64,000 bases of DNA from the IMG/VR virus record IMGVR_UViG_3300028883_000045. One strand, 5' to 3'. Shown piece after piece: positions 28,779 to 52,584 of the stretch (within the stretch, counting starts at the first letter, position 1; each line of letters starts with the position of its first letter). The stretch is from an uncultured virus (IMG/VR IMGVR_UViG_3300028883_000045) (lineage: Duplodnaviria; Heunggongvirae; Uroviricota; Caudoviricetes). The notes under the pieces were generated by a model. That model did not search any database. It had not been told where the DNA came from and saw nothing but the letters and a program-made list of their open reading frames with translations. The position numbers and the translations under genes were made by a program.

Positions 28779-30050
28779 TTGACCCAGCAAATCAGACTGC
28801 TCGACACCGGCGAGGACGCAGTGAACATCGATCTGCACGTCTCGCTGCCCTATCACCTGCCGTTCGACATGCTGGGCGCCTACTACGACGGCCACATCCA
28901 CCGCCGGCTCGAGACCGTGAACGGGCGTAAGCCCGATCGCGTGGGGCACGAGATCCTCCCGATCACCGGGATGTTCGGGTCATGGGAGAACCTCGAGGGC
29001 TCCTGGTTCGAGCAGGGGGTGCACGTCGGCGCTCATCACTACGACTGCCGCGAGGTCCTCGGGATGCATATGCGGGGGGATCGCGAGCAGGAGTTCGTGA
29101 TCTACGCGGTCGAGAGCGTGAACGGCTGCCGGCCGACCGCGAGCGTGGTCCGCAACTTCACCGATCCGACGAACCTCAAGATCCCCGTCGCTGGCCACAA
29201 CCAGGTGGCCCAGGCCCACAACTGGCGCTCCACTATCTCCCGGAACCTCCCGAAGATCGAGAACAACTGGGGGGACGCCCCGGGCTGCGAGCGCATCATC
29301 TACGTGGGCTCCGGTCCGAGCCTGCGGCGGAACTGGCACGATCTACTCGAGGTAGACCGGACGAAGTGCCAGATCTGGGCCGCAAACGAAGCTTTCAGCT
29401 TCCTCCTGAGCAAGGGGATCGCAGCAGACTGCTTCTTCTGCATCGACGCGACCAGTCCCAAGAGGTGGTGGGACGGGCTCGACTGCTCTGAGACCTGCCT
29501 GGTCGCGGCCCCGTTCGTCACTCCCGAGGTGACCGAGGCGAACTGGAAAGAGGTCTTCTGGTTCAACATCTCGGGGGACGGCGCCTACTACAACATGGTC
29601 CGCAAGCACCATCCGGAGCTGTTCGAGATCGACGCCACCAAGGGCGTTGGATCGAGCATGATCGAAAGCAGCTGGTCCAAGGGCGTGAAACACCTTGCCA
29701 TGCTGGGATGCGACTTCTGCTACGAGAAGATAGACAAAGAGGTCTACCGTTCGGTGTGGCACTCGTGGAGCGAAGAGGAGTGGCAGGAGATCGCCACGAG
29801 GTATGCCCACTACGTGGTCACGACCATGACCGGAGAGACCAGCCTCACCTACATCGGTCTGGCAACGGAATGCGCGGCGGTCTTCGCCGCGGCGCAATGC
29901 CTCAGCGAGAAGGGTGTCCTCGTAACTAACTCATCCGAAGGGGGTTGCCTGTTCGTCAACCCCGCGGCGAAGTACCTGGCCAGCCGGCCGGCGGTCCTGG
30001 AGCACAAACCCCTCAGGGAATGTCTTGACTTTCTCTCCGGGAAAAGCTAG
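28779..30050 (+). CDS. Second Maf/DUF115-family transferase
   Basis: VGSGPSL, WAAN.A, CIDA, MLGCDFCY, VTNSSEGG motifs. Confidence 0.7.
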   Translation: MTQQIRLLDTGEDAVNIDLHVSLPYHLPFDMLGAYYDGHIHRRLETVNGRKPDRVGHEILPITGMFGSWENLEGSWFEQGVHVGAHHYDCREVLGMHMRGDREQEFVIYAVESVNGCRPTASVVRNFTDPTNLKIPVAGHNQVAQAHNWRSTISRNLPKIENNWGDAPGCERIIYVGSGPSLRRNWHDLLEVDRTKCQIWAANEAFSFLLSKGIAADCFFCIDATSPKRWWDGLDCSETCLVAAPFVTPEVTEANWKEVFWFNISGDGAYYNMVRKHHPELFEIDATKGVGSSMIESSWSKGVKHLAMLGCDFCYEKIDKEVYRSVWHSWSEEEWQEIATRYAHYVVTTMTGETSLTYIGLATECAAVFAAAQCLSEKGVLVTNSSEGGCLFVNPAAKYLASRPAVLEHKPLRECLDFLSGKS

Positions 30051-31971: not shown

Positions 31972-32964
31972 TCAGATCAGTTTGTTCGAAATCAGCATGT
32001 CCCTGAGCGCTTCCACACTCATAGCTTCTTCCCGAGAGCTGTCCACCCCGCCCACCGGGATCGCGTCCCGGTATCGCGAGTAGTCTCTGGCCCCGAACAT
32101 CATCGGGGGAAGGATCACATAGTTGTCGCCATGCATGAATGCGCGCTCGGATTCTTCTGAAGTAATGATCTTCTCGTGCTGAGTCTCTCCCGGCCGGCGC
32201 CCGACCTGCCGGCGGGGCACGAATTCCAGGTCGTGCCTGCGGCAATACGCGTCGCAGAACACCTTGGCAAGATCCTCGAGTCTCGCGACCGGCATGCGCC
32301 GCACGAAGACCTCGCCCCCGACACCCCGAGAGGCGTCGATCAGCAGCCGGGAGCTTTCCTCCAGGGTGAGCACATACCGGGTCATGGTCGGGTCCGTAAC
32401 GGAGATCGAGCCCGTCGAGCACACCTGGTTCCGCCACAACCGCAAGACCGAACCCCTTGAACCAAGGACGTTTCCGAACCGAATGGAAACGAACCTCGTC
32501 TCCGGGTGGTGGCTGTTGGCCTGGGTGATGAGCTTCTCGGCGGTGAGCTTGGTGGCCCCCATGACGTTGTTGGGCTCGGCCGCCTTGTCGGTCGACGCAA
32601 AGACCACGCTCTCCGCACCGGTATCGATGGCCGCCGAGATGACGTTGCCAGTCCCGCCCACGTTCGTCTTGATGGTCTCTTCGGGATTGTACTCGCAGCT
32701 GTCGACGTGCTTCAGTGCCGCGAGATGGTAGACCGTTCCCACGTCACGGAACGCCCGCCGCAGTCGCGACAGGTCGCGCACGTCGCCGATGAAGAACCTG
32801 TAATTGCAGGGATCAAATCCCTCGGCCTCGAAGCTGGCCCGGAGCTCCAGCTGCTTCGACTGGTCGCGAGAGAGTATGCGTACCAGGTTGCCCCGACGCA
32901 GAAGGTGGCGAGCCAGGTGCGCGCCAATATCTCCAGTGCCGCCGGTGATGAGATTCCAGGTCAC
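31972..32964 (-). CDS. UDP-GlcNAc 4,6-dehydratase (PseB/FlaA1/CapD family)
   Basis: LITGGTG..G, HLAALKHV..CEYNP, STDKA, MGATK, RFGNVLGSRGSV. Confidence 0.9.
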   Translation of the reverse strand: MTWNLITGGTGDIGAHLARHLLRRGNLVRILSRDQSKQLELRASFEAEGFDPCNYRFFIGDVRDLSRLRRAFRDVGTVYHLAALKHVDSCEYNPEETIKTNVGGTGNVISAAIDTGAESVVFASTDKAAEPNNVMGATKLTAEKLITQANSHHPETRFVSIRFGNVLGSRGSVLRLWRNQVCSTGSISVTDPTMTRYVLTLEESSRLLIDASRGVGGEVFVRRMPVARLEDLAKVFCDAYCRRHDLEFVPRRQVGRRPGETQHEKIITSEESERAFMHGDNYVILPPMMFGARDYSRYRDAIPVGGVDSSREEAMSVEALRDMLISNKLI

Positions 32965-35181: not shown

Positions 35182-35880
35182 CTAAAGTCCTGACGGATTG
35201 GGGAGTCTCGAGACCGTTGTGTACCCCCGGGTAAGCAGCTCGGCGTCGAACTTCGGGCGACCCTTGTTGCGCTTATGGCCCCACTCCCATACCCTTTCGC
35301 GCACCCTGTGAAATTTGCCTCCATACCCGCCTCTGGCACTGATTTCCGCGACCTTTACCCCTAGGTGCTTCCCGTAGGGATCGGGAAGATTCACGTTCAT
35401 GACCACGCCTCGCTCCGGGCGGACCGGGAGTGCGTCCATCGCCTCGTGCAGCAGCACCTTGACCTGCTGGCAGTTGGGATCGAAAGCCCGGTGGCGGCCC
35501 AGATACTGACTAAAGGCGATCGCCGGGATACCCTCTATCGCCGCAACCCGGGCGGCCGCGATCGTCGCCGAGCACGAAATTGCGTGCTGGCCCGCGTTGT
35601 CGCCCCAGTTCAGTCCGGTGCAGACGATGTCGGGCTTCGCCAGGCGCTGCAACCCCCAGGCCACGCAGTCGCACGGGGTTCCGTCCAGTACACACGTGCC
35701 CTCGGGCATGATCTTGAGCACCTCTATCGGCCGGTTGAGGGTCCGCGCGCTGCCGAACCCACTGTGATTCTGAAGCGGCGCCGCCGTGCAAACGTGGATG
35801 TCCCGCTCGATAAGGACCTCTCTCAGTACCCGCAAGCCCGGGGAGTCATACCCGTCGTCATTGGAGAGCAGTGCGATCAA
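35182..35880 (-). CDS. surE: 5'/3'-nucleotidase SurE
   Basis: LLSNDDG...PGL, GTPCDCV, G.N.G.NAG, GIPAIAFS. Confidence 0.9.
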   Translation of the reverse strand: MIALLSNDDGYDSPGLRVLREVLIERDIHVCTAAPLQNHSGFGSARTLNRPIEVLKIMPEGTCVLDGTPCDCVAWGLQRLAKPDIVCTGLNWGDNAGQHAISCSATIAAARVAAIEGIPAIAFSQYLGRHRAFDPNCQQVKVLLHEAMDALPVRPERGVVMNVNLPDPYGKHLGVKVAEISARGGYGGKFHRVRERVWEWGHKRNKGRPKFDAELLTRGYTTVSRLPNPSGL

Positions 35881-36104
35881 GGCTTTTTCCTCCTCTGCTT
35901 TGGGCGATACGGAACACGCAGGTCTATCTCCTGGGTAGTGACTGCGAGCACCATGCCGTGGAGCGGGCCGATCCCCAGGGAGAGCTGAGCTACCTCCCGG
36001 GAAACATCCTCTCCTTCACGTTTCATCGGGATCCGCAGCGGCAAATCCCCGCCGCCGGCGGCGTTGATTTCAGCCAGGTGCCTCAGCGCCTCTTTGACGG
36101 TCAT
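35877..36104 (-). CDS. Hypothetical protein
   Basis: Start/stop overlaps on both sides. Confidence 0.5.
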   Translation of the reverse strand: MTVKEALRHLAEINAAGGGDLPLRIPMKREGEDVSREVAQLSLGIGPLHGMVLAVTTQEIDLRVPYRPKQRRKKP

Positions 36105-36343
36105 GCCTTGAGCCCCATCACCACGTAATCGTGGCGTATGCCCGGGTGGGCGAACAGCACGTAGGTGACCTTGCGCAGGATCTCTCGCCCGGTGTACTCT
36201 TCGTTACGGGGATCCCACTCCTGCAGTATCAGGGTATCGCCCACGCCGAACTTTCGATCGCTCTTGCGAACCTCGAACATCTTCTGGCAGGTGGAGAGGT
36301 CCTCGAAATACTCCGGCCAGGTCTTGAGCTTGTGTTCCATCAC
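36101..36343 (-). CDS. ASCH/DUF3850 domain protein
   Basis: HKLKTWPEYF...K.FEVR..DR.F.VGD.LIL.EWD...YTGR. Confidence 0.8.
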   Translation of the reverse strand: MMEHKLKTWPEYFEDLSTCQKMFEVRKSDRKFGVGDTLILQEWDPRNEEYTGREILRKVTYVLFAHPGIRHDYVVMGLKA

Positions 36344-36675
36344 AGCGCCATCCTCCTCTTCTGCGGCGTGAACGGCTTGAAAGGGACCTTCAGGGGTTCG
36401 GGCTTAGGAGGTTGCTGTTGCTGGGAAGGTGCAGGGGGGCTCGGTTCCGGAATCGACTGCGACCCCGACCCCGACCCCGCCCCCATCCCTGACCGCGCCC
36501 ACGACCCCGACCACGACCACGCCCCCGTCCACGACCCCGACCAGGACCACGCCCCCGTTCGCGACCTCGACCGCGACCGCGACCTCTCCCACGACGACCA
36601 TGACCCCGTCCGCGATGCCGATAGCGACCAAGGCCCCAAATTGCTCAGTCCCGCTCTCATCATGCAAACGTTCAC
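36340..36675 (-). CDS. Ser-Trp/Arg/Gly repeat peptide, copy F (MNVCMMRAGL leader)
   Basis: GTGA overlap with upstream copy; (S-x)n core; tail QQQPPKPEPLKVPFKPFTPQKRRMAL duplicated. Confidence 0.65.
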   Translation of the reverse strand: MNVCMMRAGLSNLGPWSLSASRTGSWSSWERSRSRSRSRTGAWSWSGSWTGAWSWSGSWARSGMGAGSGSGSQSIPEPSPPAPSQQQQPPKPEPLKVPFKPFTPQKRRMAL

Positions 36676-37022
36676 AGCGCCATCCTCCTCTTCTGCGGCG
36701 TGAACGGCTTGAAAGGGACCTTCAGGGGTTCGGGCTTGGGGGGTTGCTGCTGCTGTTGTTGTTGATGGGAAAGAGCGGAGGAGTTCAGGTCCGAAATCGA
36801 CCGCGACCGCGACCGCGACCGCGACCGCGACCGCGACCCCGACCACGAACGCGACTCCGACCACGACCGCGACCACGACCACGGCCGCGACCGCGACCGC
36901 ACCCGCGAGTACGACCACGCCCCCGTTCGTGAACGCGACCGCGACTGCGACCCCGACCTCGACCCCGACCACGACCGCGACCGAAAATTCGCGTACCCCG
37001 TGCGTAGCATGCAAGCATTCAT
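36672..37022 (-). CDS. Ser-Trp/Arg/Gly repeat peptide, copy E (MNACMLRTGY leader)
   Basis: ATGA overlap with recombinase stop; same tail as copy F. Confidence 0.7.
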   Translation of the reverse strand: MNACMLRTGYANFRSRSWSGSRSGSQSRSRSRTGAWSYSRVRSRSRPWSWSRSWSESRSWSGSRSRSRSRSRSRSISDLNSSALSHQQQQQQQPPKPEPLKVPFKPFTPQKRRMAL

Positions 37023-37645
37023 TTCATTCGGTCCAGCAGGCTTCTGAGCTCGTCGGGGGTCCGGTTGATGTACATCTGCGCGGTCTGCAGGTCCGCGTGC
37101 CTGAGCAGTTCTTTGACCAGCGTGACGTCCCCATTGGTCTCTCGAGCTATCCGGAACCCGAAGTAGTGCCGCAAACAGTGAAAGGTCCGGTGCCCGATCC
37201 CCGCGGCCTGGCACGCCGCGGTGAATACCGAATGCATCGTTCGCTCCGATGCCGGGCGCCGGGCCTTGGGGCCCCGCATCCCGGGCAGGAGCCACCCCTC
37301 TTCGGTCTTGTAGTCGATCCCGGCCCACTCGAAGTACTTCAGGCAGGTACGGATCACCCGCTTCGACACCGGCTGGCGGTGTTCGGGCCGCTGATCAGGG
37401 GTGATCTTGCATTTCCGGGTTATGCCCTTCTTGGCCACCCGGACAATCAGGACCGCTTTCTCGATCTCCCGGAAGTCCTCGATCCGCAGGTGCACCGTCT
37501 CCGTGATCCGGAGCCCGCACTCCGATGCCAGGTACACCGCCAGGAAGTACCGGGGGTGCCGCCTGGGCGGGTCGTTCGCCTTCAGGTAGTCCAGCACCTT
37601 GTCCAGTTCCGCCTTGCGAATGAACTTCTTTTCCTCGATCGCCAT
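37019..37645 (-). CDS. Tyrosine recombinase (catalytic domain only)
   Basis: CGLRITE (R), HCLRH (HxxR), LRHADLQTAQMY (H, Y). Confidence 0.9.
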   Translation of the reverse strand: MAIEEKKFIRKAELDKVLDYLKANDPPRRHPRYFLAVYLASECGLRITETVHLRIEDFREIEKAVLIVRVAKKGITRKCKITPDQRPEHRQPVSKRVIRTCLKYFEWAGIDYKTEEGWLLPGMRGPKARRPASERTMHSVFTAACQAAGIGHRTFHCLRHYFGFRIARETNGDVTLVKELLRHADLQTAQMYINRTPDELRSLLDRMK

Positions 37646-38209: not shown

Positions 38210-38560
38210 CTACTCGAGCAATCCGCGCAGCGCGTGAACTACGCCGATGAACAGCGCGTCCTTGGCCTTCTGTTCGGCCGGCAATTCGTCGTAAGGAACG
38301 AAGCACGGATGTTCCTTCTTCTCGGCGTCCTTGACCGGGCCGTACTTCCATCCAGTCGCTTGCTTTTCCTTCAGCCATTCATCGTGGCTGTGGCTGGGCC
38401 CGGCTTCGGGATTGTCCAGGTGAAACCGCACACCGTTGACGGCGCTGGTTCGCTGCCACTCCGGAGCTTCGGCCCACGGCGGCTGGGTGTTGTCCCCGAG
38501 CGTCGCGCAGTAGGCGCGATTCGTTTCGTGACACACTTCCGCGATTTGTTCAATCTGCAT
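38210..38560 (-). CDS. RyR-domain phage protein
   Basis: H..W...K...GWKYGPVKD...KEHPC.VPYDELP..QK.KD. Confidence 0.8.
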   Translation of the reverse strand: MQIEQIAEVCHETNRAYCATLGDNTQPPWAEAPEWQRTSAVNGVRFHLDNPEAGPSHSHDEWLKEKQATGWKYGPVKDAEKKEHPCFVPYDELPAEQKAKDALFIGVVHALRGLLE

Positions 38561-39151: not shown

Positions 39152-40081
39152 TCATCGCTCATTCTCGTCGCCGCACGGCACCTTGAGGTATGCCAGTACG
39201 TCACGCAAGCCGAGTTTGTCCGCGCAGTAGGACCACAGCTTCGGGTGCGTTTTCTTCATGCGCTGAAAGCGGTTGGGTTCCTTCTCCAGGTGGACGCCGA
39301 ACATGCAAAACATGCAGCCGGTGCGCTTCACTCCGGTGTCGTAAATAGAACAATAGGGCAGGCTTCGCTCGCGTATGTATTGCCAGATGTCCTCTTCAAG
39401 CCACGCGGAAAGCGGCGCTGACTTAGCCTTGCCGGCGCTTATCACGTTACACCCGCCAGCTCTCACGTATTGGCGCTGCCTTTGGCTGCTGTCGGACGCC
39501 ATTGTTCCCATTATCGGAGAGCACCCAGTGCGCTTCACATAACCGCCTATCGGCCGCTTCTTCATGAAGTCGCAGCACTTAGCGGAGATTTTGAATGGAG
39601 CATCGACCAAGAACCTCCACTTGTACGGCAGCATCATCGACCGCAAAAACCGCCCATCAGCAGTCATACCCGTCATGCGCAGGTGCTTCGTGTTGGCGTT
39701 GCGACTGCCCTGCACACGCATATCCGACACATACCTCGATACGGCCTTGCTCACTACCGGGTAACCGTATTCCTCCAGCACCCGTCTGAAACTCATTTCT
39801 GGCTTCACCCACTCCACGTTGTCAAACGTCTTCACAAACGCCCGCACCTCAGGATACTCAAGCCCAGTGTCGGCAAACACCGCGGGAACGTCCGGGTAGC
39901 ACTGCCGAACCAAGTCCAGCAGCACCGTGCTATCTTTGCCCCCACTGAACGCTACATACACATCGCCGTTCATAGCGCCATAGAACTCCCGAATGCGGCG
40001 CTTGGCCATCATGACCTTCTGAGCCAGCGGCAGAGATTGGCGCTGCTTCAAGACGTGCGCACTCATCAACTGGCTCATCAC
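39152..40081 (-). CDS. PAPS reductase-family protein (phage type)
   Basis: FSGGKDSTVL PP-loop, DTGLEYPE, CC, RTGCMFC. Confidence 0.85.
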   Translation of the reverse strand: MMSQLMSAHVLKQRQSLPLAQKVMMAKRRIREFYGAMNGDVYVAFSGGKDSTVLLDLVRQCYPDVPAVFADTGLEYPEVRAFVKTFDNVEWVKPEMSFRRVLEEYGYPVVSKAVSRYVSDMRVQGSRNANTKHLRMTGMTADGRFLRSMMLPYKWRFLVDAPFKISAKCCDFMKKRPIGGYVKRTGCSPIMGTMASDSSQRQRQYVRAGGCNVISAGKAKSAPLSAWLEEDIWQYIRERSLPYCSIYDTGVKRTGCMFCMFGVHLEKEPNRFQRMKKTHPKLWSYCADKLGLRDVLAYLKVPCGDENER

Positions 40082-42665: not shown

Positions 42666-42962
42666 CTAGGACCTCTTGTTCTCCCTCCCCGGGGAGAGCC
42701 TCGCCCGGAGCTTCCGCCCAGGCCGGAAGGTCACGGTCTTGTGCCGCTTCACCTTCACCGGCTCGCCGGTCCGGGGATTAGTGGAGATCCGTGCCGCGCG
42801 CACGCGCACATCAAAGACCCCGAAGTTCCGCAGTTCGAGGTTGCCGCCCTCGACGATCGCGTTGGACATCTCTTCGAGTATGTCGTTGATCGTGCTCCGT
42901 ACCTGCTTCTGAGACACGTCCCACTTTATTGACAGGGCCCTGATGACGTCCATCTTTATCAT
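42666..42962 (-). CDS. HU/IHF-family DNA-binding protein
   Basis: LELRNFGVF.VR.RAAR...NPRTGE.V.V......FRPG..L. Confidence 0.9.
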   Translation of the reverse strand: MIKMDVIRALSIKWDVSQKQVRSTINDILEEMSNAIVEGGNLELRNFGVFDVRVRAARISTNPRTGEPVKVKRHKTVTFRPGRKLRARLSPGRENKRS

Positions 42963-43180
42963 GTGATTGGCTCCGAATGCGATTCCGACCGCGACCGCGA
43001 CCACGACCGCGACCGCGACCACGAGCACGGCCGCGACCACGACCGCGACCGCGACCGCGACCGCGACCGCAACAACGACCGCGACCGCAACAACGACCCC
43101 GACCACGACCGCGACCGCGACCGCGACCGCGACTGCGGCCACAAATTCACGTATCCCGTGTGCAGCATGCAAGCGTTCAT
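42959..43180 (-). CDS. Ser-Trp/Arg/Gly repeat peptide, copy D (MNACMLHTGY leader)
   Basis: ATGA overlaps at both ends; (SR/SW)n core. Confidence 0.7.
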   Translation of the reverse strand: MNACMLHTGYVNLWPQSRSRSRSRSWSGSLLRSRSLLRSRSRSRSRSWSRPCSWSRSRSWSRSRSESHSEPIT

Positions 43181-43747
43181 GAAATCTCGTCTTCCAGCCT
43201 GCAGATCCTGCCCTTGAAGAGACAGCCTACCGCCACTATGTGTGACATGACCTTCCCGCCGGACTCGGTCTTGAGCAGTCCGACCCGGTCCATCGAGAGG
43301 ATCACCTCCTTGCTGGCGCGAGTGAACGTCGCGTAGTTTTCCCGCAACGAGGCCAGCTTCCTCTGCTTCGGACTCATCACCGGTCCGCTCATTTGCCACC
43401 TCGCTTGACCGCCAGGTACCGGGAAGCCATCACCACGTATCCGCCCGCGGCCGCCTCCATGTCATTGTGCAGTTCGGAAATCTCCAGCTGCAAGTCACTG
43501 ATAATGCAGTTCTTACAGTGCTTTCCCCCCTGCTGGATGATATCCTCCTCCAGTGTTCCGCCGCATTTCGGGCAATGTGGCTCACTCAAAGAGCACCCCC
43601 TGACCTTTGCATTCCCGAAGCTTCGCCTCGAAGCACTTCAGCGGGCGGCACGTCGAACACGCTTCGTTCGGCCACGCCTTGTTGCAGAAATGCTTCTTTG
43701 GTTTCTGCAGGCACCGGTTGTAATGCCTGCACCCCCGACAGCAGTGC

Positions 43748-44782: not shown

Positions 44783-45534
44783 GCGCGCACCTTCTCCGCA
44801 ACCTTCTCGAAGTCCTCCCGGCTGAGGGACCACGGGCCCCCGTCCGGACACTGCCCGCGGAGCTTCTCGTCGTAACAGAAGTGGGCTTCCCACGCGGTGA
44901 CCCCGCGTAACCTCAGCTTCTTTCCAAGATCCTTGCTCGCCTCGAGCCATTCGCGGCCCGGAACATGCGACGAGATCCCCACCTTCCCGGGCAGGCGCCG
45001 GACCATCTGGTCTACTCTGCTGGGATGGTACTTTCTCTTCGGCACCGGGTACTCGGGCACGCAGTACATCCAGGTGATGGGCTGCTTCCCGTAGTAATTC
45101 CCGACGCTCAGCGTCGCGTCCGGCGGGACCGACACGTAGAGCGGCAGATCGCAGGCATCGGATACCTGCCCAAAGGCCTCTGCCAGCTTCGCGTTCTGCC
45201 ACTCCTGACAGGCGGACTTGAGGAACGCCGGGAGCAGGGTCGACATGTGACCCCAAAGATCCAGCACGTGCTTCCAATGAAAGAAGCTTGCTCCGATGCG
45301 GTCGTCCTCGGTCACGCAGTCTATGACATCCTCCCACATCAAGTTCCATCCACTCAGATCCTGGGGCCGGACGTTTCTGCGCGTGGACAAGAGATGAGCG
45401 TCGAAACACTGGACCTTCACGAGGTCCGCCCCGCAGTCCAGCGCCGCCTTGCAGGCGTCCCGAAGCGACGTCGGGTCGTCGTATCGCCAACAGGTCCCGA
45501 TCTCCGCGATCACCGTAATCTCGCTACCGCCCAT
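44779..45534 (-). CDS. NeuB/PseI-like nonulosonate synthase (short, divergent)
   Basis: VIAEIG, GADLVKVQ, MYCV.EYP.P, VGISSH, EAHF; no C-terminal SAF domain. Confidence 0.7.
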   Translation of the reverse strand: MGGSEITVIAEIGTCWRYDDPTSLRDACKAALDCGADLVKVQCFDAHLLSTRRNVRPQDLSGWNLMWEDVIDCVTEDDRIGASFFHWKHVLDLWGHMSTLLPAFLKSACQEWQNAKLAEAFGQVSDACDLPLYVSVPPDATLSVGNYYGKQPITWMYCVPEYPVPKRKYHPSRVDQMVRRLPGKVGISSHVPGREWLEASKDLGKKLRLRGVTAWEAHFCYDEKLRGQCPDGGPWSLSREDFEKVAEKVRA

Positions 45535-46433
45535 ACCGTCCTCCCGATGTGGGTCCACCCGCTCATCCCACTGGTCCACCAGAACTCCTGAAGCTCCGCG
45601 CGGCGCTCGTTCAGTCGGGCGCGCGCCTTCTCGTCCCGAGAGTAGTCCTCCCCGTGCAGCCTGAAGAGTTCGACCGGGTAGGTGGTCCGCATGTAGCACA
45701 CCTGCAGGCCGCAGCGATTGAGCAGGTTCTCGAGGCTCTTGGGGTTGAAGTAGTTGATGTGGTCCGGAGTGCTGACCCACCAGTTCCTTTCGCCGGCACA
45801 CAGGAACGCCTGCTCCTGGATGGGGTTAAAGTCCCACGGAACTTCGACCAACAGGAACGTAGTACCCGTGTTGCGATAATCCCTCATGTACATCTTGCAC
45901 TTCGACAGAACGTCGAACGGGTTCCTGGCATGCTCGAGCACGAACCCCAGGTTGATCACGTCGAATTGCGCGCCCTCGTAGCAACTGCTCAGGCCATCAC
46001 GGCCGAACTCCTCCCACGAGGGGAAGATGTGAATGCGATCTTGGTGAACCGCCTGCTCCAGGCTGGGCTCGATGCCGACCACGTCGAACTCCGGGTGCAC
46101 CAGGCCCTTCTCGATGGCGTATCTCAGCCAGACCGGATCGCGACCGCACCCCACGTCCAGCAACTTGCGGTTCTGTGCAGTTCTGTTGCGACCCATGGTC
46201 ATCCACTGCTCGAAGTATACATTCTCCCAGTATTTATCGATAGTATGATGCTCTGCCGAGTAATCCGGCTTCTCGTCTCCGAAGTACTTCTCCTTGTAGT
46301 ATTCGGCCAGCTCCTCTTCGGTGGGCCGGGGATCGACGTGCGCAAACCCGCAAGAGATGCAGTTTGTGATCCGCGTCTCCCGCCCGCGAACACAGGTGCC
46401 CTCGAAGATCGACGGTCCGGTACAGATGCTCAT
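45510..46433 (-). CDS. Class I SAM methyltransferase with N-terminal Cys motif
   Basis: LLDVGCG, VLEH, LLVEVP, PDHINYF. Confidence 0.85.
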   Translation of the reverse strand: MSICTGPSIFEGTCVRGRETRITNCISCGFAHVDPRPTEEELAEYYKEKYFGDEKPDYSAEHHTIDKYWENVYFEQWMTMGRNRTAQNRKLLDVGCGRDPVWLRYAIEKGLVHPEFDVVGIEPSLEQAVHQDRIHIFPSWEEFGRDGLSSCYEGAQFDVINLGFVLEHARNPFDVLSKCKMYMRDYRNTGTTFLLVEVPWDFNPIQEQAFLCAGERNWWVSTPDHINYFNPKSLENLLNRCGLQVCYMRTTYPVELFRLHGEDYSRDEKARARLNERRAELQEFWWTSGMSGWTHIGRTVWAVARLR

Positions 46434-47395
46434 CTCTCAGGCTCCTTGAAGATGTATTCTATGTAACTGATCGCCCTCGTTCCCGTGGCGATGGGGTCTC
46501 CCGTCGGGTGCCGATCCTCGCCGAGAATCATGTTGGCCAGCCTCCTGACCGAGTCCAGGCCGGCACGGATGCTCAGCGGTGTCCCGCCTCCGAATCGCAG
46601 GTTGATATCCGTGAGCCACGCCTTGCCGTCGCCGTCAACAATGAACTGCATGTTGACCGGGCCGAAGAGGTCCAGCAGCGCATCGACCTCCATCAACGAC
46701 TCTATGACAGGCTCGGGCATCGGAACCACCTCGCCGCAGTCCATCTGCCCCTCGGACACGGAGATCCTCCGGCGGCAACAGGAGCTGACTCTCGATCCGC
46801 TTGCCGGGTAGAACAGGTCTACCGTGTACTCGCATCCACTGAGCCAGGGCTGAACGATCAGATCCGCATGTTCGATGGCCATGGCCCCCAGTTCGCGAGG
46901 GGTGTGTACCTTCTGAGCCACGCGCGAGCCCGCCCCCTGGCGCTCTTTCGCGAAGAGCGGAAAGTCATGGCCCAGGCTGGCCCACTCCGACACCGGAACG
47001 GTGCGCGGCGCCAGCCCCTGCAGCTGCTTGCTCATGAGCAGCTTGTCCCGGGCTATTCGTATCGTCCTCGCCGGACTCAGGATCAGCGGAACCCCCATCG
47101 TCTCGAACTGACCGCGCATCGCGTTCAGCCAGTCCATGTCGCCGTCGCGAACGGGGAGAACCGCGTCTATGGGAATGCGCCGGCACGTGTCGGTCATCCA
47201 GCCGACGTACTGCGAGAAGTCCATGCCTCGCGGTTGCTCGACGAACCGCCCCTGTGCAGCCAGACAGCAGGAAGCCGTGTGCGCCGGCGCGAACCCACAA
47301 GGGTAAACCCGAAAGCACTGCTCCAGCTGGCGCATGAGCGCCACCTTGCGGCCGGCGCTGGGCATCAGTAGTCGGGGGCGGTCGTCAGTATTCAC
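46430..47395 (-). CDS. ATP-grasp protein (glycan-cluster type)
   Basis: SAGRKV.L, DKL, FPLFAK...G.GS, EYTVD, D/EIN.RFGGG. Confidence 0.8.
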   Translation of the reverse strand: MNTDDRPRLLMPSAGRKVALMRQLEQCFRVYPCGFAPAHTASCCLAAQGRFVEQPRGMDFSQYVGWMTDTCRRIPIDAVLPVRDGDMDWLNAMRGQFETMGVPLILSPARTIRIARDKLLMSKQLQGLAPRTVPVSEWASLGHDFPLFAKERQGAGSRVAQKVHTPRELGAMAIEHADLIVQPWLSGCEYTVDLFYPASGSRVSSCCRRRISVSEGQMDCGEVVPMPEPVIESLMEVDALLDLFGPVNMQFIVDGDGKAWLTDINLRFGGGTPLSIRAGLDSVRRLANMILGEDRHPTGDPIATGTRAISYIEYIFKEPER

Positions 47396-48402
47396 GTCGT
47401 CACCTTCGCTACCAGCTTGTAGCCTTTGAGGGCGTTCAGGATCTCGCGCGGGAGAATGCAAGTTTCGCGCGGCGGGTCGGCAGAAAAAGGATCTCTCATG
47501 TCGATCCAGTTCTGCAGCTCCCGCGAGAAAGAGACAATGCTGTTGAACTCTATCCTGGCGCCGGGCAGCTCCCGGCGAATCGCGTACGACAGCGTCTCGG
47601 CGTTGAACATGCTGAGGTGCCCCATGCCGAACATGGGACAGGCCTCGTGCATCACCCTGGCGGCCAGCGCATCGATGTTGGGAACACAGATCAGCATCGT
47701 GCCGCCGGGCTTGAGGTGGGCGACCAGCCTTCGCATCAAGGACAGGGGCTCGAACACGTGCTCGAGGGTTTCCCAGCAGCAGACCAGATCGTATTCTCGA
47801 ACAGCGTTGTCAGGAACCCCGTTGGCGCCGAACGTCCCGAGCACCCTCTCTGCTGCTATCTTGCGAGCGTCGTCGTTGATTTCGACCCCGACAGTCTGTG
47901 ATGTATATATCGGGCCGCGCTTGGGGTCGGTTATTTCGGACGCGGCCTGGAGTAGGGTTCCCGTCGAACACCCCCAGTCCAGGATCCGGGAATTCTCTTC
48001 GGGCGTCTTGCCGATCCGCGGGGGCCAGCCCGCCCACTCCAGGGCCCACCGGAACTTGAGCTTGTCGATGTGCATTTCGATGCTGTTCTGTTGAGTATGC
48101 TGGACCCAGTCCTGAGGTGCGCCGCCCGACTTGTAGTACTCGTTCAAAGCCTTCTCGCTGGGGGGTTGCGGCTGATAGACCATCCCGCACGTCGAGCACT
48201 TTACGTACAACCACCCGTCGCGACTGCGAAAGAGCGAGCGAGCAGCGCGCTTGTCACACAGTGGACACGGCCGCGGGTTGGTCAGAACTGCGTTCTTGGA
48301 GGACGGACGATCTTTCGACCAGAGCTTGTTGCGCCCGGTAATCTCCGCGAAGGTCTTCGGGCCGAAGGTCCATCCGGCGTCGAACTCAAGCCTGCTTATC
48401 AT
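47392..48402 (-). CDS. Class I SAM methyltransferase with Zn-ribbon
   Basis: CPLC...CSTCG; ILDWGCSTG; TLEHV; LKPGG. Confidence 0.85.
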   Translation of the reverse strand: MISRLEFDAGWTFGPKTFAEITGRNKLWSKDRPSSKNAVLTNPRPCPLCDKRAARSLFRSRDGWLYVKCSTCGMVYQPQPPSEKALNEYYKSGGAPQDWVQHTQQNSIEMHIDKLKFRWALEWAGWPPRIGKTPEENSRILDWGCSTGTLLQAASEITDPKRGPIYTSQTVGVEINDDARKIAAERVLGTFGANGVPDNAVREYDLVCCWETLEHVFEPLSLMRRLVAHLKPGGTMLICVPNIDALAARVMHEACPMFGMGHLSMFNAETLSYAIRRELPGARIEFNSIVSFSRELQNWIDMRDPFSADPPRETCILPREILNALKGYKLVAKVTT

Positions 48403-48408
48403 TACCGA

Positions 48409-48600
48409 TTATCCTTTTTTTGGTTTGATTGATCGCGAGAGAAACCACGACCACGCCCCCGACCGCGACCGCGACCCCGACCGCGACCACGACTGCGACC
48501 ACGGCCATGACCCCGGCCTCGACAGCAACCATGACCGCGACTGCGACCACGACCACGAACGCGAATTCACGTACCCCGTGTGTAGCATGCAGGCGTTCAT
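48409..48600 (-). CDS. Ser-Trp/Arg/Gly repeat peptide, copy C
   Basis: MNACMLHTGYVNSRSWSWSQSRSW...; ATGA overlap. Confidence 0.7.
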   Translation of the reverse strand: MNACMLHTGYVNSRSWSWSQSRSWLLSRPGSWPWSQSWSRSGSRSRSGAWSWFLSRSIKPKKG

Positions 48601-48746
48601 AAGAGCACCAATGAGACCGAGTTTGGCCTTGAGCCCGACCACGACCGCGACCACGACCGCGACCACGAGCACGACCACGACCGCGACCACGAGCACGACC
48701 ACGAACGCGAATTCACGTACCCCGTGTGTAGCATGCAGGCGTTCAT
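48597..48746 (-). CDS. Ser-Trp/Arg/Gly repeat peptide, copy B
   Basis: MNACMLHTGYVNSRSWSCSWSRSWSC...; ATGA overlap. Confidence 0.7.
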   Translation of the reverse strand: MNACMLHTGYVNSRSWSCSWSRSWSCSWSRSWSRSWSGSRPNSVSLVLL

Positions 48747-48904
48747 GAGGTTGACCTCGAGTGCGAATACGAATACACCCACGAATGCAGCCATGACCCC
48801 GACCACGACCCCGACCACGACCCCGACCACGACCCCGACCACGACCCCGACCACGACCGCGAATCCGACGTATTCAGTCCCTCTCGCATCATGCAGGCGT
48901 TCAT
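48743..48904 (-). CDS. Ser-Trp/Gly repeat peptide, copy A (absent from ORF track)
   Basis: Hand translation: MNACMMREGLNTSDSR(SWSG)5SWLHSWVYSYSHSRSTS; AGGAGG RBS. Confidence 0.7.
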   Translation of the reverse strand: MNACMMREGLNTSDSRSWSGSWSGSWSGSWSGSWSGSWLHSWVYSYSHSRSTS

Positions 48905-48962
48905 GAAGCATCCCTCCTGTCCGCCCCGGGGGCATTTGCCCCCGGGGCCGCAGGACCAGCCG

Positions 48963-49223
48963 TTACTTCTGCTGCGTCGGCAGGTCGTGGTTCCAGATGG
49001 TCGCGTCCACGATCGCGCCGCGGTTCACGAGCACGGGCCCAGTGAAGGGCTCGACCTCCGACATCTCGCCGTTTGCCAGCGCGTCGTGGAACCGCCCCGT
49101 GTCCGCAACCCAGCTGGCGTTCTCGAGGACGATCTCCTTGTCGTTCACGGATACGAGCTCGCCCACCTGATAGTGCGTCACGCAACGCACCAAGTACTTC
49201 TGCCCTACCTTCCAGAATTCCAT
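48963..49223 (-). CDS. Small beta-barrel (Sm-like/DUF6948-like) protein
   Basis: AGGAGG RBS; VGQKYLVR.VTHY..G.L......I.L..ASWVADTGRF; fold inferred. Confidence 0.55.
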   Translation of the reverse strand: MEFWKVGQKYLVRCVTHYQVGELVSVNDKEIVLENASWVADTGRFHDALANGEMSEVEPFTGPVLVNRGAIVDATIWNHDLPTQQK

Positions 49224-49252
49224 GACTCTCCTCCTCTTGTTTTCAAAAGCAA

Positions 49253-49966
49253 TCACAACCAGGCCAGAACTTTTCTGGCCAACTCCAGGTCGTTACTGTC
49301 GTGCACTTCGATCGCGCCCTTGTCCGGCACCGGAACGATCCGGGAGCCGAGCCACGCAAAGGCGTCGTCTCGATCGCAGGTCATGAGCACCTCGGTGCGC
49401 ACAACCGCGCAGCTACCGGTAGCGATGAACCTCTCGTCGAAGTCCTGCATGCGGTAATTCCGCCCGATCCTGCAGCGCACCAGCGCCCCGGACCGGTCCT
49501 TGACCCACATCCACTCCGGGATGCAACAGATCGGCCGGACGGTCATGCTGGACGTGGCCTCGTCATCACGCTGCAGGGCCCGTATGCACCTGTTGATGGT
49601 TTTCGACGTGATCGTCGGGACGTTGCCGGGTATGCAGGCCACGTATTTGAACTTGCGGATGCTGCCCGCAATCTGCCGTACGACCTCCTGCATCGGCCTG
49701 TGGATACTGGCCGAATCGGTAGCTGTCTCCGGACTCCGCTCGACCAGCTGTATCCGATGCTTCCAGGACTCCTCCCGGGCCAGCGCTTTGACGAACCGGC
49801 TGTCGGTCGACACCGCGACCTCAGATGCCATGGAACCCGTGGCGGCCCCGAACGCGTACTCGATCATGGGGTTCCGACCCACGTACTGAGAATGTTTGTT
49901 GCACAGGCGCTTGCTCCCGGCCCGCGCGCAGATGATCGCAAGAGTGCTCAAATCAGACTTCCCCAC
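49253..49966 (-). CDS. Acylneuraminate cytidylyltransferase (NeuA/PseF family)
   Basis: IICARAGSKRL.NK, VSTDS, IEV....DLE. Confidence 0.85.
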   Translation of the reverse strand: MGKSDLSTLAIICARAGSKRLCNKHSQYVGRNPMIEYAFGAATGSMASEVAVSTDSRFVKALAREESWKHRIQLVERSPETATDSASIHRPMQEVVRQIAGSIRKFKYVACIPGNVPTITSKTINRCIRALQRDDEATSSMTVRPICCIPEWMWVKDRSGALVRCRIGRNYRMQDFDERFIATGSCAVVRTEVLMTCDRDDAFAWLGSRIVPVPDKGAIEVHDSNDLELARKVLAWL

Positions 49967-51273
49967 TTTGCTGTCTCGCGCACAATTCTCGCGCGCGCTT
50001 CCTGCAGCCAGTATCCGCTCTGATTGGTCAGGTTCGCATACGGCCTCTCCCTGAAATCCCCCAGCGCGCGCACGTAGGCCAGCTCGTCTCCGATCCGGCC
50101 CGTCTCGACCGCTGTATCGTAGAGCGGAGTGCCCGGCAACGGGGTGGTGAAGAACACCACCTCAGGCCTGGTCTTCGTGCGCCGGCACAGTTCTATGCTC
50201 TCCTGTATGCTCTCGTCATCCTCGACGGGAGACCCTACCATCATGCTGTAGTCAGCTCCTCCGAACACCTCCTTACACGTATTGATCGCCTTCTCGTTCT
50301 GTTCGACCGTGGTCCGCTTGTTGTAGCTGTCGAGCACCTTCTGGCTGCCGGACTCGATGCCGAGTCCCACCAGGACACAGCCAGCCTCTTGCATGGCGAG
50401 CAGCAGGTCCGGGCTGCAGTGGTTCGCGCGCGCGGCGCAACCCCACGTGCAGTCTACCAGGTACGTATGTCCCATAATGCCGGCGCACAGTTCGCGCATC
50501 CAGTCGGCATCGGCCGTCGATAGATCGTCGGCCGCGTGGAAATACCGGACCCCGTACCGCTGCCACAGGATCTCCATCTCGTGGATGATGTCCGCGGGGG
50601 TGCGCTTGCGGTACTTCAGTCCCATCTGGCAGTGGCTGCAGAACGCGCATGCGTAAGGGCAACCCCGGGCCCAGACCAGGTTCATGCTGCGGGGCACCGG
50701 ATCACCGCCGGGTATCCCGCCGGACCACTTGTTGCGGTTGACCGCGCCCACCGGATTGCGGGTGTAGGCCTCCATGTTGAACGCCGACCAGAGGGGCAGG
50801 AGCTCGGAGTTCAGAGGCCCGGCCTTCAGCTGCATCCAGATCGGGGACCTGTCCGGCCGATCGAGGTCCCCGTTTTGGAGCGTCTCGGCGAACAGCGGCT
50901 CGGACTCCCCCTGCCAGACATCAACCCCGAGCCACTCGTGCAGCCTGCCGCCCAACACCGAGATCGGGCCGCCCACTATGACCGGGGCATCGGCCCGGAC
51001 GTCCCGGACCCAGCCCACGATCTCCTCGACCCTCGAGAACTGCGTCACGATCGCGCTGATGCCCACGTGCGTGAACCCGCCCGTCCCGAACTTCGAACGG
51101 ACGGTGTTCTCGATGTCAGGATGCCCGTAACGGGTAACGTTGAGGTCGAGCACCTCGCAGGGGACCCCCGCCTCCCGCAGCGCGGCCGCCGTGTAGGCCA
51201 GGCCCAGCGGCAGGTTCGCCGGCAGGGCCTCTTCGCGTATGGGCGGGTGGATAAGGAGGATTTTCATGATCAT
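49948..51273 (-). CDS. B12-binding radical SAM protein
   Basis: PLGLAY.AA.L; VGG; RGCPYACAFC; GIESGSQ. Confidence 0.9.
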   Translation of the reverse strand: MIMKILLIHPPIREEALPANLPLGLAYTAAALREAGVPCEVLDLNVTRYGHPDIENTVRSKFGTGGFTHVGISAIVTQFSRVEEIVGWVRDVRADAPVIVGGPISVLGGRLHEWLGVDVWQGESEPLFAETLQNGDLDRPDRSPIWMQLKAGPLNSELLPLWSAFNMEAYTRNPVGAVNRNKWSGGIPGGDPVPRSMNLVWARGCPYACAFCSHCQMGLKYRKRTPADIIHEMEILWQRYGVRYFHAADDLSTADADWMRELCAGIMGHTYLVDCTWGCAARANHCSPDLLLAMQEAGCVLVGLGIESGSQKVLDSYNKRTTVEQNEKAINTCKEVFGGADYSMMVGSPVEDDESIQESIELCRRTKTRPEVVFFTTPLPGTPLYDTAVETGRIGDELAYVRALGDFRERPYANLTNQSGYWLQEARARIVRETAKWGSLI

Positions 51274-51302
51274 TCCTCTGGATACGAATTGGGAGGGGGC
51301 GG

Positions 51303-51563
51303 CTACTTCCTCAACCACAGCGCCAGTGCGGTCGCCAGGATGAACATGCTCGCCACCGCGATCCCCGCCGCCTTGATGAGCGGGTGAACGGGGACCGCCT
51401 CGATCAGAGACCATGTCACCCCCACCACGGCGGTGACCAGCAGCAGAGCCGAAAACACGATGGTCACGCAGCCCATGCTGGTGATCCAGATGCTCAGGAA
51501 TGGTTCTGATCTGCTGGGCTCTGGTCCCACATCCGTCTCCTTCGCCGCTCGGCGTTCTTCCAC
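51303..51563 (-). CDS. Two-TM membrane protein
   Basis: Two hydrophobic segments. Confidence 0.45.
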   Translation of the reverse strand: MEERRAAKETDVGPEPSRSEPFLSIWITSMGCVTIVFSALLLVTAVVGVTWSLIEAVPVHPLIKAAGIAVASMFILATALALWLRK

Positions 51564-51841
51564 ATCGCGTCGATGATATTCGCGAGGCAGTCCCGGTCGC
51601 AGAAGTCGAACCTCTCCTCCATCCAGGCCACCGGCACCACGTCACCGGGCTCGTGGTCCGGATTGGGACTGCCGTCCTCCAGCAGCGGCGGCGTCCTGGT
51701 GCAGCTGATCACCACCGCCAGGAAATCCCGCTTGGGGTTCTTCGGGTGCGGGCCCAGGGCCGCCCTGATGTTGTAGCCGGCGTGCAGGCTCCCACACGCG
51801 TCGCAGATCCGCTCCGCTCCGTACCTAGTAGCGTCGTTCAT
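51494..51841 (-). CDS. Cys-containing hypothetical protein
   Basis: CDAC...FC...C; ATGA overlap. Confidence 0.5.
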   Translation of the reverse strand: MNDATRYGAERICDACGSLHAGYNIRAALGPHPKNPKRDFLAVVISCTRTPPLLEDGSPNPDHEPGDVVPVAWMEERFDFCDRDCLANIIDAMWKNAERRRRRMWDQSPADQNHS

Positions 51842-52584
51842 CGCTCGCTCCCATCGGACTGGTAGGACCGGTGGCCGCGGTAGTCGCCCTTGAGCAGACC
51901 GGCCAGGTCCCAGGTGGGGTCGTAGGCGCTCTCGAACGACCGGATCGAGATGATGTCCGACAGTTCGATCTCCGGGCTCTTCTGGAACACCAGGTAGACC
52001 GGAACGAAGGGCGTGTTTTGGAGCGTAGTCACGCGCTCGCCGTTGGAGTTGACTGAGGTCGCAGGAACCGCCTCGGATTCCTGCTCGCCCTTGAACAGCG
52101 AAACCCCCAGCTCGAGGCCCCCGCGCTGAAGCAGGACCGCCCACACGTCCGAGACGACCTTCTTGAGGGAGTAAAACGGGTCCCAGTGTTTGAACCGAAA
52201 ATATACCTCAGGGTTTTCGGACAGCGCGGGAATGGTCTCCAGCGGGACCGCCTCCGCGGTCGTGACCGGTCGCTTGTCGTGCCCGTGCCCGACGTCCAGC
52301 TGGTAGATCGGAACGCTGAACACGTCGTCCCGACTCGGTTCGACCCCGTCCTGCGAGTAGGGGCTCACCTCGGTCACGGCCTCCAGCGTCACGACGTCGG
52401 CCTCGATGTTGAGACCCGGGGTCCATAGCTCGGGATTGGCATCATCCCAGTTCCCGGCCCGCAGGGTCAGCTGCCGGCCGCCGGCTGCGAATATGTTGTT
52501 CGCAATCTCGCCGGCACAACCCACAAACCCCCAGCACTGCTCCCTCGAGGCCTGCGGAAACAACTTGTCGATCTGCTCTGGCAT
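51838..52584 (-). CDS. Hypothetical protein
   Basis: GGAGG RBS; biased codons; promoter upstream. Confidence 0.55.
   Translation of the reverse strand: MPEQIDKLFPQASREQCWGFVGCAGEIANNIFAAGGRQLTLRAGNWDDANPELWTPGLNIEADVVTLEAVTEVSPYSQDGVEPSRDDVFSVPIYQLDVGHGHDKRPVTTAEAVPLETIPALSENPEVYFRFKHWDPFYSLKKVVSDVWAVLLQRGGLELGVSLFKGEQESEAVPATSVNSNGERVTTLQNTPFVPVYLVFQKSPEIELSDIISIRSFESAYDPTWDLAGLLKGDYRGHRSYQSDGSER

Follow-up and report, generated by a model that had tools for sequence, protein, structure and literature searches.

Genes for a predicted Sm-like protein and for leader-bearing Ser-X repeat peptides form a widespread two-gene unit in uncultured phages

The eukaryotic Sm proteins SmB, SmD1 and SmD3 bear C-terminal tails of Arg-Gly dipeptide repeats, and LSm14/Scd6 bear RGG boxes. 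In the Borg elements, five of 19 Sm proteins carry N-terminal amino-acid tandem repeats that are predicted to be disordered (PMC9879509). Here we describe six genes for Ser-X repeat peptides in an uncultured phage, the IMG/VR record IMGVR_UViG_3300028883_000045, of which a stretch of 64,000 nucleotides (nt; hereafter the window) was analysed, together with the neighbouring gene of a small protein of predicted Sm-like fold. The Sm-like gene and Ser-X peptide genes form a two-gene unit that is real and general, being widespread in many unrelated uncultured phages. As in the eukaryotic proteins, an Sm-fold core would be combined with a basic, disordered dipeptide-repeat tail that aids nucleic-acid binding or assembly, a likeness that we propose; unlike them, the phage repeat is a separate coupled gene product with its own N-terminal motif, its unit is Ser-X and not Arg-Gly, and the phage protein has no detectable Sm1/Sm2 motifs (no match to Pfam LSM). 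With Borgs the common ground is a mobile element's Sm-fold protein associated with a perfect, fast-evolving nucleotide tandem repeat that encodes a disordered region, although in Borgs the repeat, with a unit of 4-17 amino acids (aa), is an N-terminal fusion to a canonical Sm protein, and neither a separate leader-bearing peptide gene family nor a Ser-NGG rule is described for them (PMC9879509). A literature search, as well as Pfam, PHROGs, NCBIfam and Rfam, yielded no published description of either gene or of their pairing. If functional, the pairing would amount to the design of an Sm core plus repeat tail split into two coupled genes.

The association of the two genes holds from both sides. 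A strict array was defined as at least four consecutive Ser-[WRGKC] pairs including at least two W or R. Among the 50 loci found through the Sm-like protein, 42 have a strict array no more than 800 nt downstream on the same strand and one has an array upstream only; six of the seven loci that fail the strict rule have short or degenerate arrays by eye, and in the last the contig ends 148 nt after the gene with an array-type open reading frame (ORF) just starting. The background, counted over the 351,188 bp at distances above 1.5 kb from the gene, was 19 strict arrays, some of which are extra copies. The (TCGNGG)6 pattern alone finds at least 121 loci in IMG/VR (about 510 stored stretches are estimated), and among the matches listed the Sm-like gene is present in 64 of 121, or in 43 of the 62 that have at least 600 nt of upstream sequence. 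A few contigs are common to the protein-found and array-found sets. Linkage to the beta-barrel gene in other genomes, on which the first-pass annotation of this DNA had staked its proposal, is in this way strong in both directions. When all ORFs of at least 50 aa from 51 loci were compared with each other, the Sm-like gene, with its antisense shadow, was the sole common neighbour of the peptide genes.

In the array-found loci the Sm-like gene mostly ends 24-140 nt before the array, and the peptide gene typically starts a few tens of bases past the end of the Sm-like gene, often by an ATGA stop-start overlap. This adjacency and overlap suggest that a single transcript yields both the Sm-fold protein and the peptide, in linked amounts. 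The order is reversed in six loci, where the array precedes the Sm-like gene. Apparent fusions of the two in six array-found loci were rejected as such: the arrays are upstream of the gene and are read in another frame. In one locus (L031, 6209-7377) an HNH endonuclease gene separates the Sm-like and peptide genes, and the next gene after that of the peptide encodes a DUF6948 protein (E 1e-32). The Sm-like gene was also found at nine loci in bacterial metagenome-assembled genomes labelled Actinobacteria, Acidobacteria, Planctomycetota, Omnitrophota and Saccharibacteria, with an array in six of the nine; some of these loci are on contigs of 57-649 kb and so are possibly prophages.

The Sm-like gene of the window (48963-49256, minus strand) encodes 97 aa, or 86 aa if read from its second ATG, and the corresponding ESM Atlas sequence begins at residue 12. 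Its 50 IMG/VR relatives are 36-57% identical to it and the motif WVADTGRF is invariant in them. A profile search of 1.84 billion cluster representatives gave 2067 at E<=1e-3 and 1558 at E<=1e-10, each standing for a cluster at 50% identity. No family in Pfam, PHROG or NCBIfam matches the protein, tblastn against GenBank phages returned a single record, from an uncultured Caudoviricetes, and ESM Atlas has only clusters of 'hypothetical protein', mostly viral. The Sm fold consists of an N-terminal helix and a bent five-stranded beta-sheet; AlphaFold2, with 43 sequences, predicts a helix at residues 2-14 followed by strands, with an extra helix at 56-62 (predicted local distance difference test score, pLDDT, 91.4; predicted template modelling score, pTM, 0.79). 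The chains found with this model by Foldseek in the PDB are almost all Sm, LSm or Sm-like (E from 9e-4; template modelling score normalised by target up to 0.76), and a search by structure in the Atlas leads to an archaeal cluster, 25% of whose members carry LSM; among viral models Foldseek finds uncharacterised phage proteins, some with DUF6948. From these models we confidently assign to the protein an Sm/LSm-like barrel fold, which agrees with the small beta-barrel gene that had been placed upstream of the tandem peptide genes on sequence alone. Four family representatives (P0002, P0004, P0014 and P0149) have a tandem-duplicated Sm-like domain, and these duplications give a hint of an oligomer.

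The six peptide genes lie on the minus strand where the first-pass annotation had put them, and they have a common start, MNACM(L/M)(H/R)xG(Y/L), followed by (Ser-X)n encoded by TCG-NGG hexamers. Three are in tandem behind the Sm-like gene. The first, c1 (48743-48904, 53 aa), has the leader MNACMMREGL, a core that is mostly (SWSG)n and its own ribosome-binding site (RBS), GGAGGG, 8 nt upstream; c2 (48597-48746, 49 aa) and c3 (48409-48600, 63 aa) begin with ATGA overlapping the stops of c1 and c2, respectively, and a methyltransferase gene comes next. The remaining copies are dispersed. The ATGA start of c4 (42959-43180, 73 aa, net charge +14) overlaps the stop of a 71-aa ORF (43177-43392), and its stop overlaps the first ATG of an HU-like gene (42666-42962; Pfam Bac_DNA_binding). 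That of c5 (36672-37022, 116 aa, net charge +22) overlaps the stop of a tyrosine-recombinase gene (37019-37645), while c6 (36340-36675, 111 aa) starts with GTGA over the stop of c5 and its own stop overlaps the start of a DUF3850/ASCH-like gene (36101-36343). The translational coupling claimed earlier for the tandem genes would apply to five of the six copies, c2 to c6, all of which start by a 4-nt ATGA or GTGA overlap with an upstream stop codon. The same habit is seen elsewhere: the 41 leader-bearing ORFs listed from 21 loci all begin ATGA or GTGA. The first 15 nt of the leader occur nine times in the window at no more than three mismatches, with 1.64 expected and none of 100 shuffles giving nine; six of the nine are the gene copies (with 0, 0, 0, 1, 2 and 3 mismatches) and the other three adjoin no listed hexamer array.

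Each of the six ORFs contains a period-6 array, of 11.5 to 31 units by Tandem Repeats Finder (36460-36584, 36798-36983, 42986-43137, 48444-48558, 48636-48704 and 48791-48862), and the program also reports a 146-nt higher-order repeat over c1-c3 at 48498-48872. A GC-rich RNA hairpin (48915-48955, minus strand) is predicted between the Sm-like gene and c1, where the 67-nt region folds at -42.1 kcal/mol (z -4.5; none of 200 shuffles as stable); it is without a U tract, part of the c1 RBS is paired in its outer stem, and a terminator scan did not call it. Peptides c5 and c6 have a common C-terminal tail that c1-c4 do not have (36672-36790 and 36340-36440, minus strand), consisting of a Gln run and a Pro/Lys-rich stretch with the ending RRMAL, and AAGAGGAGG, the RBS of the following gene, is contained within the last codons of this tail. 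Because of the ATGA overlaps, the frame of a downstream gene, if followed backwards, runs without a stop through the upstream array, where it spells a segment rich in Val, Ala and Gly (48597-48935, 48409-48702, 42666-43172 and 36340-37014, minus strand). A -1 ribosome slip inside the array would lead into the next gene, a purely hypothetical event of which there is no sign.

An alignment of 30 peptides bears out that a conserved leader is joined to a variable core. The N-terminal motif covers 11-12 residues, of the form M-N-x-x-hydrophobic-hydrophobic-R-x-G-aromatic, and frequently ends in Asp or Glu; M1 is invariant and R7 and G9 are found in at least 90% of the peptides. The R-A-G of the leader resembles the R-A-G-P of SecM, which raised the idea of an arrest peptide. 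In 42 distinct peptides the 848 X positions are occupied by Arg (301), Gly (220), Trp (204), Cys (42) and others (81), so that 725 of 848 are W, R or G. The window peptides have 49-116 aa, a net charge of +1 to +22 and an isoelectric point of 8-12, with Ser, Trp, Arg and Gly together making up 50-66% of residues and Ser alone 22-36%. The Ser-X arrays are predicted to be basic, disordered chains, and AlphaFold2 on a peptide (30 sequences) gave a pLDDT of 53 and no secondary structure. Composed as they are, the peptides are natural, near-ideal 'sticker and spacer' polypeptides, in which Arg and Trp are the stickers and Ser and Gly the spacers. PHROGs has no family for any of them. A homology search with c5, which is limited by low complexity, gave one match (E 2.3e-3) among 8000 candidates scored, the 118-aa metagenome protein P0001, in which an unrelated N-terminal domain precedes a C-terminal tail rich in SR, SW and SG; such tails evidently occur fused to other domains too. 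Two related loci are particularly rich in these genes: L043 (5309-9017) has 12 leader-bearing ORFs in two clusters, Cys-rich as well, and L015 has four in two clusters (6338-6753 and 9093-9460).

Since TCG-NGG hexamers are open in all six frames, several of them G+C-rich at the third position, composition is uninformative as to whether the arrays are coding. Other evidence favours translation in the Ser frame. In all six copies this frame runs uninterrupted from a start codon up to a stop at the border of the next gene. Codon differences of one base between leaders were scored as synonymous or not in each frame (the pairs are not independent), and the Ser frame had the largest share of synonymous differences: 25/45 in the window, against 7/45 and 20/44 in the other frames; 118/262 against 31/193 and 56/184 in L043; and 10/18 against 0/4 and 0/4 in L015. 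The first codon of the hexamer in related loci, over a GC content of 0.33-0.70, is always Ser, which may be TCG, TCT, TCA, AGC or AGT; the spelling is nearly uniform within a locus and varies between loci, so that only the Ser-X frame yields the same protein throughout. The leader also appears to be conserved as protein and not as DNA, given that the exact degenerate DNA pattern of the leader has no match in IMG/VR and the peptides can be aligned. From the open Ser frame, the synonymous changes and protein-level conservation of the leader, and the Ser spelling, we conclude that the six ORFs are, on sequence evidence, real and translated small genes, belonging to a very large phage gene family without prior description.

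The choice of codons at X follows a rule of its own. Over 41 loci (GC 0.33-0.70), 420 of 430 array Arg codons are CGG or AGG and 300 of 307 array Gly codons are GGG, compared with a crude background for NGG of 31% and 23%, respectively. The leaders of the same ORFs do not follow it: one of 38 Arg7 codons is AGG, and seven of 40 Gly9 codons are GGG. The frequency of G is 0.92 at hexamer position 5 and 0.87 at position 6. The X codon begins at position 4, where the four bases are nearly equally frequent (A 0.18, C 0.24, G 0.28, T 0.30). The first base of Arg is preferentially C in GC-rich loci and A in AT-rich loci, and synonymous drift between loci is seen in the Ser codon and never in the third base of X. 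Trp has only the codon TGG, and part of the NGG bias consequently follows from the amino-acid set. It may be that the periodicity of GG has a role of its own at the level of RNA or DNA, for instance in binding the Sm-fold protein; alternatively, the turnover of arrays may be tied to Trp units. A diversity-generating retroelement target was considered and rejected as a source of the variable arrays. Such a system has a reverse transcriptase and a template repeat with adenines at the variable positions. Pfam detects no reverse-transcriptase family in the window, nor is one common to the related loci, which makes a retroelement mechanism unlikely, and the choice of C or A for Arg follows the GC content of the locus, unlike a random replacement of template A. 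Whatever its basis, the NGG rule is a testable constraint on codon choice that amino-acid selection alone leaves unexplained.

Taking the fold, the composition, the coupling and the genomic context together, we infer tentatively, with a probability of about 35%, that the two products make up a two-part nucleic-acid-binding unit with an Sm-fold core and interchangeable Arg/Trp-rich disordered tails. Among the alternatives offered by the first-pass annotation, it is that of RS-domain-like nucleic-acid binders partnered with an Sm-like protein that fits best. The pair would act as one unit early or in the middle of infection. The Sm-fold protein would be the structured core, probably oligomeric, on which the peptides might dock through their conserved N-terminal motif, supplying the flexible tails in trans. 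Arg could contact phosphates and Trp stack on bases, with Ser and Gly as spacers, and in this manner the tails may bind, chaperone or condense RNA or single-stranded DNA. Replication slippage would lengthen, shorten and reshuffle the arrays; the extra copies c4-c6 would have been placed behind other DNA-handling genes (recombinase, HU). The radical SAM, ATP-grasp, methyltransferase and sugar-nucleotide genes of the window stand outside the conserved unit. Should the pairing be functional in this sense, it would be among the larger unnamed gene families of tailed phages and would represent a phage analogue of the design of Sm core plus repeat tail found in eukaryotic snRNPs (small nuclear ribonucleoproteins) and Borg elements.

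Several observations weigh against a two-part unit. The 97-aa protein has no match to Pfam LSM at E<=0.01 and no evident Sm1/Sm2 RNA-binding motifs, for which reason it is not filed as a member of the LSM family, and the family profile has no match to PDB sequences at E<=1. No protein that fuses the Sm-like domain to an array was seen among the 10 longer or odd sequences inspected from the best 150 representatives, whereas one might look for such proteins if the tails were simple extensions of the core. Among the matches listed, 19 of the 62 arrays that have at least 600 nt upstream lack an Sm-like gene within 2.5 kb, and three of the six window copies are 5-12 kb from theirs; these arrays and distant copies imply that the peptides can be encoded apart from the Sm-like gene. 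The NGG rule, near-absolute in the arrays and not followed by the leaders, goes beyond a purely protein-level function and is not explained by it.

A rival idea is that the transcript of the array, with its periodic GG, is itself a multi-site ligand for an Sm-fold oligomer, either because the protein controls the translation or stability of its own operon or because the array RNA holds or titrates the protein, the peptide being a second product or a by-product. TRAP binds spaced (G/U)AG triplets (GAG/UAG) and CsrA binds the GGA repeats of CsrB, and the proposed arrangement is alike in having a small oligomeric RNA-binding protein and an RNA with many evenly spaced G-rich motifs. The fixed G at positions 5 and 6 beside a near-uniform position 4, the contrast in NGG use between arrays and leaders of the same ORFs, the RNA-binding type of fold of the partner and the adjacency of array and gene in cis, in either order, are all consistent with it. 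Unlike the RNAs of those systems, however, the phage repeat is at the same time an ORF, in which start and leader are conserved and the Ser codon is fixed. A three-base spacer that is always Ser and is drawn from both Ser codon families would be superfluous in an RNA ligand, yet this spacer is maintained, as are the start codon, the conserved leader with its mostly synonymous variation and the stop-start coupling; Rfam, moreover, has no matching family, and the restriction of Trp to TGG accounts for part of the bias. We consider a role at the level of RNA, alone or beside that of the peptide, unlikely. Somewhat more doubtful is a dual coding, in which the array would specify a disordered Ser-(Trp/Arg/Gly) polypeptide and also a ligand in RNA or single-stranded DNA, with GG every six bases, for an Sm-fold ring, such that protein core, tails and repeat RNA form a phage ribonucleoprotein or condensate. 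If true, this would be a categorically new and very widespread class of phage organiser in which array length and the order of Trp, Arg and Gly are tuned by slippage. About as improbable, in our estimation, is that the peptides act alone on the host, condensing its ribosomes or nucleoid or perturbing membranes, with the Sm-fold protein as chaperone or antidote. Their strongly basic, Trp-rich and predicted disordered character would suit such a function, as would a high and variable copy number (up to 12, in L043) and a position in accessory or early regions. Arg-rich disordered antimicrobial peptides are reported to condense bacterial nucleic acids or ribosomes (PMC10630377, PMC13720017). The phage peptides, on the other hand, lack a signal peptide and are not linked to a lysis cassette, nor is there evidence of toxicity. 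The alternation with Ser also makes them much less hydrophobic than known Trp/Arg antimicrobial peptides.

Other explanations draw on the neighbours of the genes or on the form of the peptides. By Pfam, the neighbours of the tandem trio are those named at first pass: on one side a PseF/NeuA-like cytidylyltransferase (CTP_transf_3, 49253-49966, below cut-off in NCBIfam) and a B12-binding radical SAM protein (B12-binding plus Radical_SAM, 49948-51273), and on the other two methyltransferases (Methyltransf_23, 47392-48402 and 45510-46433) and an ATP-grasp protein (46430-47365), all on the minus strand. These enzymes had suggested that the peptides are precursors of RiPPs (ribosomally synthesised and post-translationally modified peptides), with the N-terminal motif as a leader recognised by a maturase and the core modified by the adjacent B12-radical SAM, methyltransferase and ATP-grasp enzymes. 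Precursors of the prochlorosin type are a many-copy family with a conserved N-terminal part and a hypervariable C-terminal part, and the phage peptides resemble them in both respects as well as in their tandem and dispersed copies within one genome; the radical SAM protein also weakly resembles RiPP C-methyltransferase models in NCBIfam, all far below cut-offs. But no maturation enzyme is common to the 51 loci, and among 107 neighbour proteins of 15 loci Pfam finds DnaB, RecA-like, gp32-like, RecT, ThyX, DNA methylases, HNH endonucleases, TnpB, recombinase, ParB and terminase, and no Radical_SAM, ATP-grasp, Methyltransf_23 (the small-molecule type) or CTP_transf_3. With these families missing beside the module in the other loci compared, the enzyme cluster at c1-c3 seems to belong to this phage and not to the module. 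The leader is unusually short at about 11 residues, the core is of low complexity, the window has no RRE-like (RiPP recognition element), protease or exporter gene by Pfam, half of the copies are found 5-12 kb away from the enzymes, after a recombinase gene and ahead of an HU gene, and the partner that is constant is an Sm-fold protein and not an enzyme. While the leader-core architecture stood, the RiPP reading drawn from the neighbouring enzymes lacks support as an explanation for the whole family, and we think it quite improbable. Modification of Ser, with the peptides as acceptors or decoys for pseudaminic-acid-type O-glycosylation by two Maf/MptE-like proteins or for phosphorylation by host kinases, is if anything more questionable. 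Maf proteins glycosylate Ser and Thr of flagellins, the window encodes a PseB-like dehydratase, a PseF/NeuA-like cytidylyltransferase and two MptE-like proteins, and the Ser content is high; the sugar genes, however, do not accompany the module in the other loci compared, their NCBIfam matches are all below cut-offs, the Maf-like genes, at a distance of about 20 kb, close the plus-strand block ahead of the early genes on the minus strand, and no observation singles out the peptides as an acceptor. A packaged internal protein, whose N-terminal motif would be a capsid-targeting sequence and whose basic body would travel with the DNA, is to our minds a long shot. The internal proteins IPI-III of T4 carry a 10-residue capsid-targeting sequence, and they too join a short conserved N-terminal tag to basic proteins that vary and whose genes stand in tandem within a plastic region, just as the phage peptides vary in copy number and often end their motif in Asp or Glu; the Ser-X bodies, by contrast, are dipeptide repeats, their genes sit among those of DNA metabolism with no head-gene or prohead-protease link seen (the protease link was not specifically examined), and the Sm-fold partner would be left unexplained. 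We give least credence to the arrays being without a function of their own, whether as slippage-prone filler or as selfish mini-ORFs. Arrays that are open in all six frames, that break assemblies and that reach a summed word depth of several-fold to about 60-fold that of their flanks in three metagenome runs might be expected of filler, but the leader shows conservation as protein, every window copy has a Ser frame without interruption between start and stop, and gene order and coupling are maintained even though the Sm-like proteins are only 36-57% identical.

A modification specific to this phage, either RiPP-like or an O-glycosylation by the Maf-like, PseB-like and PseF-like set, may exist. 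The sugar genes of the window are at 27332-28417 and 28779-30047 on the plus strand and at 31972-32964, 35182-35880 and 49253-49966 on the minus strand, and the set comprises two MptE/Maf-like proteins, a PseB-like UDP-GlcNAc 4,6-dehydratase, a SurE-like nucleotidase and the PseF/NeuA-like cytidylyltransferase. As far as their sequences indicate, this set, taken with the enzyme cluster around c1-c3, looks like a kit for pseudaminic-acid-type (nonulosonic-acid) glycosylation.

The window as a whole has 62% G+C and resembles a tailed-phage genome, with a plus-strand block at about 1-31 kb and a minus-strand block at about 31-64 kb, the latter encoding helicase, recombinase, HU, nucleases and regulators. 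All NCBIfam matches of its proteins fall below the curated cut-offs. No Rfam family was found across the window at the gathering threshold, megablast of 46000-52000 against GenBank phages gave no match, and a tRNA scan found no genes, so that no phage tRNA for NGG or Ser codons is present there. DNA near-identical to the window is carried by contigs of three marine sediment metagenome runs, and in these runs the contigs of the window phage break at the arrays. Certain viral contigs of IMG/VR start and end in Ser-NGG arrays (L064/L127, L094/L122 and L107/L124), and many others end in one, from which it appears that assemblies fragment at these repeats. This is of some consequence for virus metagenomics, as arrays that break assemblies are easily dismissed as low-complexity noise. 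The window also encodes a PAPS-reductase/PP-loop-like protein (39152-40081) and a RyR-domain protein (38210-38560), both on the minus strand, and a RadC-like JAB protein (25494-26450) on the plus strand.

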